The position numbers were made by a program, and so were the translations under genes. DNA of 64,000 bases from Octopus vulgaris (taxonomy: Eukaryota), in the NCBI GenBank assembly GCA_951406725.2, contig OX597814.1, forward strand, positions 104,160,001 through 104,224,000. The letters are read 5' to 3'. This document shows positions 33,564 through 50,349 of the stretch, piece by piece; position 1 is the first letter of the stretch, and each line of letters begins with the position of its first letter. The notes under the pieces are model-generated. The model saw only the letters and a list, made by a program, of their open reading frames with translations. It was not told the origin of the DNA and ran no database searches.

Positions 33564-36500
33564 GTATCCTTCAAAGAATCTCTTTTTCTCATATTTACTC
33601 AACTAAAAATTCTCTTTCTGTTTTGTGATAGCCATTAGGTTTCATATACCTGTCTGTCTATCTTTCTGCATGCATGTGTGTGTGTGCGTGTGAATTGTTC
33701 TTTCTCTGTTTTGGGAAAAATCCCACAAAATTGTAATAAAGTTTTATTACCTTTTAGATTATTTTTCTAAATTTCCTAAAAATATGAAATATCAATAACT
33801 AACAGGGTGCATTTTCTGTATGCATAGCAATTGCACAATATACATATAATGTTGTGGATTTTAAAGAATATTTTAGTTTCTGAATAACAAAATATTATTT
33901 TATGTAGAGTTTTGGAGAGGTGAAATATTTGACTTTTTTTTTTTGTTTTTGGTAATTTATTCTTAAAATCTAAGAAATTCTAAAGGAGGGATTCCAATCA
34001 TGTTTCATGGTTTGCTACCTCAACAGCTCCTTTATAGAGGATCCAGTGGCTAGAGACATCATCAGGAGGAACCACGTCTGGTTTCAGCCCCTACTCCTCT
34101 GCCGTTTTCGATGTGGTACTACCCCCTTTTGGAGGTGTCTTCAGCTTCTTCTTTCTCTTTTTTTCTTCTGTTCCCTGGCCTCTTCGATGCAGCATCAACG
34201 AGTGTCAGCAGGCGACTGATCATCCTGCCAAATTTCCCTTTAAATACTCCCTGGTATGCTCCAGCAGCCAGCACTAACTAGTTGTCACGTGACACTGTCT
34301 AAACAACTGACAATGGAGGGGAAGGGCACATGATCTTAGCCCTCACTCTCTCTAAACCTGCCTTCCAACAGCGTCATGTTAGTTTCAGTTCCAGCAACTG
34401 GAGTGACCTGCTGTTTGGTGGTACAAGCCTTCGAACTAGGAGGAAGGGGTGCCATGAACGAGACAGTTACCTGTCAATCAGCGATGCTGCTTAAGTATCA
34501 TCCAGTCTCACCTAGTGATGCTATTTCCCAGCCGGCATGTTATGGCTTTCAGGCTATGTTTGGTTTCCTCGCTTCAGCCATATATAAAAGCTGGCTTTTT
34601 CGACTGCCTCCTGTATTCTCCTTATTACTTTGACTTTTCTTCCTTTATCTCTTACCATTTTGTGTCCACTTCTCCAGACATGTTTCCATCTCACCATTGA
34701 CATCAGTTCTATGCTTTTTCTTCCATCAAGTCCATCTTGTTGAGAACAACCTTCACCAATTCTTTTTAAGTCTTCTGTTTCTTCAGATTCCTTCCATCTC
34801 CACCACTTGACCCTTGTTCAACAAGCTGTTATCCTCTATAATTCCCACACATCCCCTTCATACTAATCTCCCAGTCTCTTTCGCTCTGTGTCTGCTGCCT
34901 CTTCCCAGTTTTTATCTCTCATCATTTAGGCTCTTTCATTTATTCACTCATCAGCAGAACATTCTGATGATGTGATGGCTTATTTTTAGAATGACTTTGA
35001 AATATAGGTACAGGAGGCAGAATCTGGCTGGTTTAAACGTAAAACTGGTAGAATATTTGGAGCAGATACGGTCAGTTTAAATGCTAATGTGTGAAATGAG
35101 AATCCTAAACTAATAGTCCTCCAAAAGTATTAAAAGTATTGCTTCATGTTCATTTCAAATCCTCATCCATTTTCCATGCTGGCATGGGTTGGATGGTTTG
35201 ACTGGGGTCTGGGAAGCAGGAGGCTGCACCAGGCTCTAGTCTGATCTGGCAGTGTTTCTATAGCTGGATGCCATTCCCAACGCCAACCATTCCGAGAGTG
35301 CAGTAGGTGCTTTTAACGTGCCACTGGCACAGGTGCCAGGGGAGGCTGACAGCGACTAAATCTTTTCATTATTTCTCAGATCAAACAACAGTTTTAGGGA
35401 TCTCTGATTTAAGTTTTGTGAAAGAAGAATAAATTCTAAAAGATTAAAAATAGTGTTAATATATTTCTCAATGTATCTGACAGGAGTTGTTTCCAAGGAA
35501 CTTTTGAACTGTGAATTCAAACTTCTGGAATTTCTACTAAACAGAGTAAAGTAAAATATTGGTATTGGTGAAACTCTCTAGCATTTAAGCTGACCATACC
35601 CACCAGCGCAAAGATTCTACCTGTTTTATGTTCAGACTGGCAAGATTCAGTCTCTCACACCTACCCTACCATGTCATTCTAAAACTAAACAATCTCATCA
35701 AGTAAATCTCAAAGCTATGAGATAATGCATGATTAATTCACCAGTTTTCAGTCAAACCGTCCAACTCATGCCAGCATGGAAAGTGGACATTAAATGATGA
35801 TGATGATAATGAATTCAAAGCAATGTTATCAAGTAAATGCTAAACGGTTAAAAAAAATTTCCATAGTCGTAGGTGTGGCTGTGTGGTAAGAAGCTTGCTT
35901 TCCAACCACATGGTTCCAGGTTCAGTCCCACTGCATGGTAACCTTGGGCAAGTGTCTTTTACTCTAACTTGAAGCTAACTAAAACCTTGTGAGAGGATTT
36001 GGCTGATGGAAACTGAAAGAAGCTCATTGTATGTATATATTTATGTGTGTGTCTTTGTGTTTATGTTTGTTCCCCAGCATTGCTTGGCAACTGATGTTGA
36101 TGTGTCTACTGATAGGATTAGTACCAGGCTTTAAAAAGAATTAGTCCTGGGGTCAGTTTGATCAGTTAAAAAACCGTTTAATGCAGTGCTCCAGCATGGC
36201 TGCAGTCAAATGACTGAAACAATTAAAAGAATAAAGAAAAGAGAATAAAAGAAAAATGGTTTTGGTGCCGAGAGAAATCTTGGGTTATTCCTTGAGATGG
36301 CCCCAAGGAATAACTCCAAGAACTCCTTAATCATTCATGCGGATTAGAGGTTCTTTTTCTTGTTTCAATCATTAAACTGTGGCCATGCTGGGGCACCACC
36401 ATGAAGAATTTTTAGTCAAATGAACCAACCCCAGGACTTATTTTTGTTTTGAGCCTGAGAGTAATTCTGCTGAACTGTTAAATTACAGGGACATAAACAC

Positions 36501-39150
36501 ACCAATGCTGGTTGTCAGGTGGTGGTGGGCGGTAGGACAAACAGACTAAAAGACACACGCACATTGATGGGCTTCTTTCAGTTTCTACTTACCAAATCCA
36601 CTCACAAAGGTTTGTTTGGCCTGAGGCTATATTAGAAGACACTTGTTTGTCCAAGGTGCCATGCAGTGGGACTGAACCTGGAAGCATGTGGCTGGAAAGC
36701 AAATTTCTTGCCACACGGCCACGTCTGTACCTATAGAGATAGAAATAACAACAACATAAAACCAGTTCTTTAGTGATTATCTCAGATATTAAACTGGAAT
36801 CTCAGTTGTTTTTAGCTGTTCATGGTAGGGTTTTTGTTTTTTGTAGTTTTATTTTCTTCAATCAATAAGATTATTTTCTGTTCCACTCCTAACAATGTCG
36901 TGTCTCACTAAACCACCGTCTCTCTCTTAGTCTCTGCCTCTCATATTCGTGTTAATTGCACATGCTGAATGCACCAATTTTATCATACCAACAGACACAT
37001 TAATTAAATCCTATTTTACGTTCCAGTACAATGTGTAAAGTCTTCATTAGGTTCGTCTTTGGAATTAGGAATCAACATCACCCCCTCACTATCTTCTAGG
37101 TGAAAAGAAAAATAGTATTTTTTAAAATTTATGCTTATATTTTCCTTATTTGGAAAATTGTATTATATCCAGAAGATTCTAATAGTTAATAAAAATGAAT
37201 CGTTTTACTCTCACTTATTTTAACAAGCTCTCTCTCTCCCTCTCATCTTCACATTTCACATTATAATAATGACCTCTTATGACCTCTACACTCGACTTCA
37301 ATGTCCATTTATGTCAACTGTTGGCTTGGACACGTGTAATTTACTTCTATTTTCGTATCACTAATTGCTTTCAACTCTACCTTGTTTTTTTCTCCTCCTT
37401 TTCTTTTGCCTCTTTCTAAACCTCCATACTTTCTGCTCCTAACCTTTATGTATTAACAGTCTGTCTCTCCCTCTCTCATTAAAGCATTCAGTAGTTTGAT
37501 GTTTTAGAGGCAGAAAATTAGTCCAAGTTCTGATGAAGAGTTTAAGGAATTAAATAAAGAAAAGCACTTTTTGTGGTTGTTTCTTATTTTTCCTTCAGAT
37601 GAAATGTTTTTAGTTTCAAAGTAAATAATTCTTTCTAGAATAGGCACAAGGCCTGCAATTTTAAGAGAGGGCAATAGTCGATTCCATCAACCCCCAGTAC
37701 TCAACTGGTACTTAATTTATCAACCCCTCCCTAAAAGGATGAGAAGCAAAGCTGATCTCACTGGAATTTCAGCTCAGAACATAAAAGACAAACTGCCACA
37801 AAGCACTTCGCTCAGTCTGCTGCTGGTTCTGCCAATTTGCTGCCAAAAACAGTTTGAGGAATTCATTCAATCCTCAATTAGCTCAGTCTTTGGTTGCTTT
37901 TAGTTTAATACTGGAGAACTTTAACTATAAATTTTTAACAATCAACACTCACATGCTTGGCTGAATCAAACAGCTTTCTTCAGAAAATTAACTAACGCCA
38001 GAAAACGCTTTCACTCGGTCATTTCTGAATAAAAATTTAGTAATTCACTGGTTTGTCTACTAAATTGACTTTGTCTAGTTGTTGATCGACATCATTGGCA
38101 TGTTAATCGGTTCAGGATAGGCTTTAATGCTATTTGTATTGTAATTGAAATCTAGTGAATGTCTACAATAGCTGATATAACGAGTTGAATATAATTAGAC
38201 AAACTATGGAGTCTCTCGTCAAATTTCACTTCTCTTCTAGAAATCTTTTCTCGTTCGATGGACTTTTACAGAACTTCACTGCAGTTTCGTTTTTATCTCT
38301 TTTTTTTTCGTTTGTTTTTTAGTTTATTTGTTTCAGTCATTGGACTGTGGCCATGCTGGGGCACTGGCTTCAAGGGTTTAGTCAGACAAATTGATCCCAG
38401 AACTTTAAAAAAAAAAAAATCTGGTATTTATTCTGTCACTCTCATTTGCTGAACCACTAAGTTACAGGGTCATAAACAAACCAGCTCTGGTTGTCAAATG
38501 ATGGACACACAAAAATAGAGGATGAGCTTCCATACAGTTCCTTCTACCAAATTCACTCACAAGGCTTTCGTCGGCCCAAGGCCACAGTAGAAGACACTTG
38601 CCTTAGGTACCATGCAGTGAGAATGAACCTTGAACTGTGTGGTTGGGAAGCAAGATTCTTACCACACAGCCATGACCACAACACACACAGAGGATGAGCT
38701 TCCATACAGTTCCTTGTACCAAATCCGCCGAGAAAGCATTGGTCAGCCCAAGGCCACAGTAGAAGACACTTACCCAAGGTGCCATGCAGTGAGACTGAAA
38801 CCAGAACCACTGGTTGCAAAGCCAGTTTCTTATTTTATGATATTTTATACATTTGTTTTTGTGTGAGTTGCAGCATGGAAAAGAGATGTTTGATGATGAT
38901 GATGCTGGACACAGAGCAAACTTCTTTCAGTTTTGTCTTGTGGCACAATGGTTGATATGGTCAAGGAAGGACACTTCTTGATGACTCAACCAAGGCCTGA
39001 TCAAATCCAAAGAAATGAAATGCTATGTCTGGGAAGCGTTTGACCCTAAATTTGTTTGAGCGTAACTGATTCTGTGATGTCTGACCTGCAACCAATGTCT
39101 TTGAAATGTCTTTAATGGAATCTGTTGTTTACTTAACCCAAATCTCTCAG
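33564..39150 (+). other. U12-type GT-AG intron A (phase 2, 5587 nt)
   Basis: donor GTATCCTTC; branch box TTTACTTAAC 39128-39137 ends 13 nt before the exon; no long polypyrimidine tract. Confidence 0.92.
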
Positions 39151-39340
39151 CTATATTGTTCAATCTCTGATGGAGACAGATATGTACAAGTTGCTGAAAA
39201 CTCAGAGACTCAGTAACGATCATGTGTGTTATTTCTTGTATCAGATACTGCGTGGTTTAAAATATATTCATTCTGCTAATGTGTTGCATCGGGATTTGAA
39301 ACCCAGTAACCTCTTACTGAACACCACCTGTGATCTAAAG
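39151..39340 (+). CDS. MAPK1: ERK exon, 190 nt: [63 protein letters not shown]
   Basis: HRDLKPSN catalytic loop; U12-like branch box TTTACTTAAC upstream of the AG; GTATGT donor. Confidence 0.98.
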
Positions 39341-50079: not shown

Positions 50080-50289
50080 CAGAGGTTCTCAACAAGGGTC
50101 CACATAAGGTTTTTTTTGTTAAAATTTATCTGCAATAATTTAGTTATACTTCTATAATACACAAAATATTTTAACAATTTTTTAAAAATACAAAAAGAAT
50201 CTCTTTAAACAAGGAATGTTTATAAGGGTTCACTCAAGTAAAAGAGTAATGAAAGGAATGGAGGGGTGAAAAATGGTTGAGCATCACTG
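50080..50289. mobile_element. hAT (Charlie/MER5-like) MITE
   Basis: ends CAGAGGTTCTCAAC / GTTGAGCATCACTG; imperfect 8-bp TSD gttgaaaa/gtttaaat. Confidence 0.65.
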
Positions 50290-50349
50290 GTTTAAATACC
50301 GATTTGGTACATGTTTGTCTCTATTGATTCCTTCATCATGATACTTCAG

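Follow-up and report, generated by a model that had tools for sequence, protein, structure and literature searches.

The DNA considered here is a window of 64,000 nucleotides from Octopus vulgaris (assembly GCA_951406725.2, contig OX597814.1, positions 104,160,001 to 104,224,000, forward strand), within which lie nine exons of a mitogen-activated protein kinase (MAPK) gene that, judged by its sequence, is the octopus ERK (MAPK1). These exons, between 22539 and 55274, join into 303 stop-free codons, and all 303 are identical to residues 41-343 of a protein (P0009) named MAPK1 in its source records from Octopus bimaculoides and O. sinensis. The TEY activation motif is present, the kinase motifs are intact and the nearest relatives are ERK1/2; the best PDB matches of exon 4 nearly all carry the names MAPK1/3 or ERK2. 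Three introns of the gene, referred to below as sites 1, 2 and 3, bear the signals of the U12 class, which is removed by the minor rather than the major (U2-type) spliceosome.

33564..39150, + strand: U12-type intron at site 1, 5587 nt, phase 2, between KDV and YIV; donor GTATCCTTC
39128..39137, + strand: site-1 branch box TTTACTTAAC, 6/7 core pairs with the U12 small nuclear RNA (snRNA) of the same genome, ending 13 nt before the exon
45983..48346, + strand: U12-type intron at site 2, 2364 nt, phase 1, between YTKS and IDV; donor GTATCCTTT
48328..48336, + strand: site-2 branch box TTCCTTAAC, 7/7 core pairs with U12 snRNA, ending 10 nt before the exon
48419..50349, + strand: U12-type intron at site 3, 1931 nt, phase 1, between GKH and YLDQ; donor GTATCCTTC
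50328..50336, + strand: site-3 branch box TTCCTTCAT, non-consensus, with 6 Watson-Crick pairs, 1 G-U pair and a bulged C, ending 13 nt before the exon

The minor-type donors that the initial annotation had placed at 33564, 45983 and 48419 all stand at exon ends, and the branch boxes it described 10-13 nt upstream of the exon are likewise found there. The extended donor RTATCCTT is present at all three introns, and the other six known ERK donors are of the GTRAG, GTATGT or GTCAG types. The full donor GTATCCTT occurs three times on the + strand of the window and not at all on the - strand, where 0.87 per strand would be expected under a third-order Markov model; all three copies start exactly at ERK exon ends, and further RTATCCTT motifs (30142 on the + strand, 11553 on the - strand) do not lie at exon ends. 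At a minor-intron rate of 0.3-0.5%, the probability that at least three of nine donors are of the minor type is 2e-6 to 1e-5, a figure that treats as independent draws introns that, being within one gene, are not. The site-3 box is the weakest of the three, with a C in place of the consensus purine and marginal pairing to U12. The absence of a long polypyrimidine tract, also adduced in the initial annotation, discriminates poorly, as pyrimidine content is 64-68% at the three U12 acceptors and 59-95% at the six others. A crude U12 pairing score does not cleanly separate the classes either (up to 6.0 at U2 acceptors, 6.0-7.0 at U12 acceptors), the value of 6.0 arising at one U2 acceptor with a bulged T at 7 nt. 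Both measures were set aside as sole classifiers because they are too weak.

The junctions by which the initial annotation proposed to check its reconstruction, 33563/39151, 45982/48347 and 48418/50350, are all joined exactly in contigs from three studies (P1, P2 and P3), unambiguously and with GT..AG ends, in three of four runs (X1, X3 and X4, whose classification as RNA is a guess). No ERK joint was seen in run X13, which comes from another organism. A processed pseudogene was considered as the source of these joints and rejected, genome G000 containing no high-identity or intronless copy of ERK outside the locus. The same octopus genome carries U11, U12, U6atac and U4atac genes above the Rfam cut-offs, in a search directed at the snRNAs, and the minor snRNA boxes AAGGG, GTAAGGA and AAGGAGA are complementary to the intron sites. 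The U6atac-like copies above the cut-off number 43 and are spread over many chromosomes, compared with 5 U11, 3 U12 and 3 U4atac matches; U6atac is the proposed limiting snRNA, and the surplus copies are probably retro-copies. With sequence, junctions, snRNA genes and conservation in agreement, the U12 identity of these introns and the threefold need for the minor spliceosome appear well supported.

The initial annotation had counted eight introns; the gene has at least nine, since a first exon with a GTAAGT donor is found about 39 kb ahead of the start of the window.

G000:C1:104121052-104121174: exon 1, donor GTAAGT
22539..22665, + strand: coding exon 2, whose end matches the loose contig ends ahead of 33508
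33508..33563, + strand: exon 3, 56 nt, its last codon the V of KDV
39151..39340, + strand: exon 4, with the catalytic loop HRDLKPSN; the next intron is U2
45850..45982, + strand: exon 5, DFG, the TEY activation motif and APE
48347..48418, + strand: exon 6, 72 nt, 24 codons, DVWSVG helix, with a phase-1 U12 intron on each side
50350..50429, + strand: exon 7
52019..52097, + strand: exon 8
52498..52607, + strand: exon 9
55211..55274, + strand: start of exon 10, interrupted by a gap, with loose contig ends behind 52607

An assembly gap of 100 N (55275-55374) interrupts this last coding exon, and the final 24 ERK codons were found neither in the window nor in the next 20 kb downstream. An Rfam scan of the window gave no matches. 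About half of the site-2 intron (46088-47240) is occupied by a high-copy repeat with broken frames, presumably related to mariner-type transposases by its motifs.

Introns at these positions are not peculiar to ERK, a circumstance of evolution that the initial annotation had overlooked. The p38, JNK and NLK genes and two other MAPK loci were taken from G000, with names assigned from sequence. In octopus p38 and JNK an intron stands at each of the three homologous positions, as compared through an alignment of ERK with p38, so that the positions are older than the split between ERK, p38 and JNK. In both paralogs the classes at sites 1, 2 and 3 are U2, U2 and U12: the U2 donors of sites 1 and 2 are GTAAGT and GTAATG in p38 and GTGAGT and GTAAGA in JNK, and the site-3 donor is GTATCCTT in each, with a TTCCTTAAC box in p38. 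In octopus NLK the site-1 intron is U12 (donor GTATCCTT, box TTCCTTAAT), and sites 2 and 3 are intronless. Among octopus ERK, p38, JNK and NLK, only ERK is of the U12 class at all three sites. Two further features of the p38 relatives may be recorded. Three intronless p38-like open frames (L004-L006), 44-47% identical to bird p38, lie within about 80 kb (G000:C10:83395190-83476980) and are possibly retrogenes free of minor introns. The p38 exon AIKKLSRPF..HENV occurs twice, at G000:C1:97607598-97607747 and 97608371-97608520, 773 nt apart and identical in protein, which would reflect either a recent duplication or an assembly artefact.

For the vertebrates, the MIDB tables for human and mouse give one minor-intron row each for MAPK1, MAPK3, MAPK8-14 and NLK (PMC6717393, supplements 1 and 8). 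In these rows the exon before the intron ends in TGT (MAPK1/3) or AAT (NLK), like octopus site 1, or in one of ACC, ACT, ATT and ATC (p38/JNK), which fits site 3. From this sequence context we infer that the human minor introns are those of site 1 in ERK1/2 and NLK and of site 3 in p38 and JNK. The mapping to site 1 is backed by seven vertebrate ERK models whose translation continues into the intron as KDVYP or RDVYP. Vertebrate ERK genes are not known to have an intron of any kind at sites 2 and 3.

In other animals, a U12 donor misread in a gene model leaves a read-through signature (from GTATCCT), which was sought in 370 proteins. It appears 8 times at site 1, 25 times at site 2 and 16 times at site 3, many of these proteins being redundant or unnamed; a U2-like read-through at site 2 is seen in 15 of the 370, all unnamed open reading frames that continue as SE or SK. 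The named cases at site 2 are the sea slug Plakobranchus (P0124) and the annelid Paralvinella (P0352); at site 3 the amphioxus Branchiostoma (P0002) is the one named case among full-length models. All three of these public ERK models are truncated or padded exactly at U12 donors.

A scan of metagenomes, with the site-3 exon end and its U12 donor as the query, extended this survey. The loci listed, 111 of about 140, comprise 38 non-MAPK exons, which were dropped, and 73 MAPK exons, which were kept, 65 of them ERK. At site 2, these 65 ERK loci show a GTRTCCTT donor in 22 cases, GAATCCTT in 1, a U2 donor in 4 and no intron in 12; in the other 26 the donor falls off the locus, 25 of these having a box-like acceptor. 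One other locus among those listed, L110, is U12 with boxes at all three sites; its DNA is 77-88% identical to the octopus exons and it groups with annelid-like loci (Shimodaira-Hasegawa-like approximate likelihood-ratio test, SH-aLRT, 89). The annelid-like L060, L082, L086, L088 and L122 are U2, U12 and U12 at sites 1, 2 and 3; L094, which groups with a bryozoan (SH-aLRT 99), and L114, which falls among corals and anemones, are U12, absent and U12; and L074, L097 and L118, unplaced in the tree, are absent, U2 and U12. In the fungal-like L143, L151 and L166, site 3 holds a U12 intron and site 2 none. Across orthologous site-3 introns the donor is the same and the boxes vary. The GAATCCTT donor at site 2 belongs to L060, where it replaces GTATCCTT beside an intact branch box, and seven related loci carry GTGTCCTT; either L060 has a non-canonical donor of the U12 class or its assembly is in error at this point.

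The account that seems to us probable is that the three ERK introns are old MAP-kinase introns that have been kept in the minor class, and that other lineages have lost or converted to the major class different subsets of them. On this view the common ancestor of cnidarians and bilaterians would already have had U12 introns at sites 1 and 3, that at site 3 probably being older than the split of animals and fungi, and the U12 state of site 2 would go back at least to the mollusc-annelid ancestor. According to the text of one broad survey, conversion is assumed to run almost only from minor to major, and molluscs are relatively rich in minor introns (PMC10639083). Several points weigh against this account. 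At site 2 every U12 intron seen lies in a sequence that is lophotrochozoan by name or by placement, and p38, JNK and four ERK loci without a placement are U2 there, so that the ancestral class of this site may have been either. That three U12 introns have been kept since the mollusc-annelid split could also be put down to selection. The human introns were assigned to sites from three exon-end bases each. The metagenome scan, which required a U12 intron at site 3, is blind to loss at that site, and most of its loci are near relatives of one annelid-like group (46 distinct sequences), so that their counts are not independent. The tree is a quick build from pieced rows in which 23 of 34 inner branches are open.

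A different history for site 2 alone has to be weighed against retention. An old U2 intron beside the site-3 U12 intron may have gained U12 signals in lophotrochozoan ERK, the 72-nt exon perhaps being easier to define between introns of the same class, with sites 1 and 3 ancestral. The U2 class of site 2 in octopus p38 and JNK speaks for such a conversion, as do the U2 donors in 4 of the 39 ERK loci with a readable state (L074, L097, L118 and L154, among the loci listed) and the SE or SK read-through of the 15 unnamed frames; the U12 state is found in turn in the octopus, Plakobranchus, Paralvinella and loci that group with molluscs (SH-aLRT 85), and MIDB lists a second minor intron for no human MAPK. 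A major origin has been inferred for 15-20% of human minor introns, as stated in PMC11347168. We nevertheless consider a conversion unlikely. The default in the field is that introns pass from minor to major only; a few independent conversions to U2 would be ordinary, one being evident at site 1 within the annelid-like loci; most of the 25 proteins that read through at site 2 are unnamed, and some of them might be non-lophotrochozoan; and the loci with U2 introns at site 2 are unplaced. Similarly doubtful is the bolder proposal that can be built on it, in which site 2 turned from major to minor in the mollusc-annelid ancestor, against the accepted direction, leaving a 72-nt in-frame kinase exon between two U12 introns, making lophotrochozoan ERK the MAP kinase most dependent on the minor spliceosome of any known, and permitting a U12-to-U12 skip that would yield a kinase-dead ERK. 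The lengths predict that such a skip, joining the two U12 ends, would stay in frame and could remove a core helix; the joint 45982>50350 is not among the 15 joints listed, 501 further joints lying outside that listing.

Two other explanations concern how the introns are used rather than how they arose. The first takes up the throttle on MAPK signalling suggested in the initial annotation, which amounts to a model already published, that of minor introns as molecular switches (Younis et al. 2013, PMC3728624). In its full form, limiting U6atac would hold ERK pre-mRNA unspliced, three serial steps would steepen the response, and stress would release it. In human cells p38 stabilises U6atac and raises the output of minor-intron genes, as described in that paper. 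Minor introns are reported as enriched in MAPK genes (PMC6865273, PMC12332006), channel genes tend to retain at least one (PMC3291851), and phosphorylated ERK is given as 35% lower in adenomas of Rnpc3 heterozygous mice (PMC12332006). Of the MAPKs examined, all those with introns at these positions have likewise kept at least one as U12, in part by design of the metagenome scan. PMC12332006, however, describes no definitive evidence from RNA-seq that MAPK mis-splicing drives the growth effect; work cited in PMC7367187 holds that excision rates are too similar for any slowness of U12 introns to matter; and PMC10639083 argues for neutral processes. Related animals, moreover, manage with one or two minor introns, and nothing in the octopus sequence or contigs points to regulated retention. 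Both classes of intron show listed contigs of about 3-15 in depth, where the joints reach 300-1100; because contig depth cannot rank gene parts and the runs may contain DNA, these figures were counted neither for nor against the throttle. The stops that retention of each intron would bring, at 33604, 46006 and 48445, and the peptides leading to them are as the initial annotation gave them; they carry no weight as evidence of a throttle, and were rejected as a sign of design, because most retained AT-rich introns yield a nearby stop. A selected throttle thus described is quite improbable. It is less probable still, to the point of being hardly credible, that the major spliceosome has taken over one or more of the introns or shares in their splicing, the likeliest case being the site-3 intron and its TTCCTTCAT box, although all are GT-AG introns, the site-3 box is non-consensus and U2 and U12 acceptors overlap at a pairing score of 6.0: all three donors are the full GTATCCTT, and orthologous site-3 introns retain the same donor despite their varied boxes. 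A full GTATCCTT donor is a poor match to U1.

If the U12 class is accepted, it follows from established biology that each ERK transcript undergoes three minor-spliceosome events. At each intron U11 and U12 would bind the donor and the branch box, and U6atac would then take the place of U11 at the donor, so every ERK mRNA would need this three times. Such splicing is probably routine. Should the minor spliceosome become limiting, ERK would be unusually sensitive, as a by-product of its history and not as a selected switch.

That MAPK genes contain minor introns, and that some genes have three of them, was known already. What is new is the comparison of U12, U2 and absent states at three MAPK intron positions across paralogs and lineages. 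The literature searched contains no account of an invertebrate ERK with several U12 introns, or of site 2, although they may be listed in subscription papers, in bioRxiv supplements or in the MIDB and WtMTA online resources; the term MAPK does not occur in the main texts of PMC10639083, PMC11347168, PMC7367187, PMC2831892 or PMC3291851. Both Octopus species are included in the survey of PMC10639083, whose online database therefore probably has entries for these introns. The attraction of the system is that one compact gene family offers three homologous intron positions that are U12, U2 or absent according to lineage and paralog. It provides single-gene test cases for whether major-to-minor conversion occurs (site 2) and for whether there is a reason that genes hold on to one minor intron or more (site 1 in vertebrate ERK, site 3 in p38/JNK, all three in octopus ERK). 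Cephalopod ERK mRNA is predicted to be a sensitive reporter of minor-spliceosome activity, and U12 donors explain the truncated public ERK models P0124, P0352 and P0002.

Comparison with known systems places the octopus gene among familiar elements in an unfamiliar combination. The molecular switch was demonstrated, as reported in PMC3728624, in human cells for genes with a single minor intron. Human and mouse MAPK1 and MAPK3 are orthologous kinases that share the site-1 donor context TGT|GTATCCTT and the KDVYP read-through, but each is listed with one minor intron rather than three. The donor contexts of human p38 (MAPK11-14) and JNK (MAPK8-10) match site 3 of octopus p38 and JNK, and that of human NLK matches site 1 of octopus NLK; the text of PMC2831892 gives the nemo/NLK intron as U12 in both fly and human. 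Octopus ERK differs from all of these in combining the site-1 intron of ERK/NLK with the site-3 intron of p38/JNK and in adding a U12 intron at site 2, a position of the U2 class in the p38 and JNK genes of the octopus. Its closest counterparts in number are the multi-minor-intron genes: among 714 human minor-intron genes, 50 have two and 3 have three (PMC6717393), and U12 introns are reported to cluster within genes in 21 of 21 genomes (PMC7367187). Octopus ERK shares with such genes a number of U12 introns far above chance. The human multi-minor-intron genes in those tables include no MAPK, whereas in octopus ERK two adjacent U12 introns flank an in-frame exon of 72 nt.

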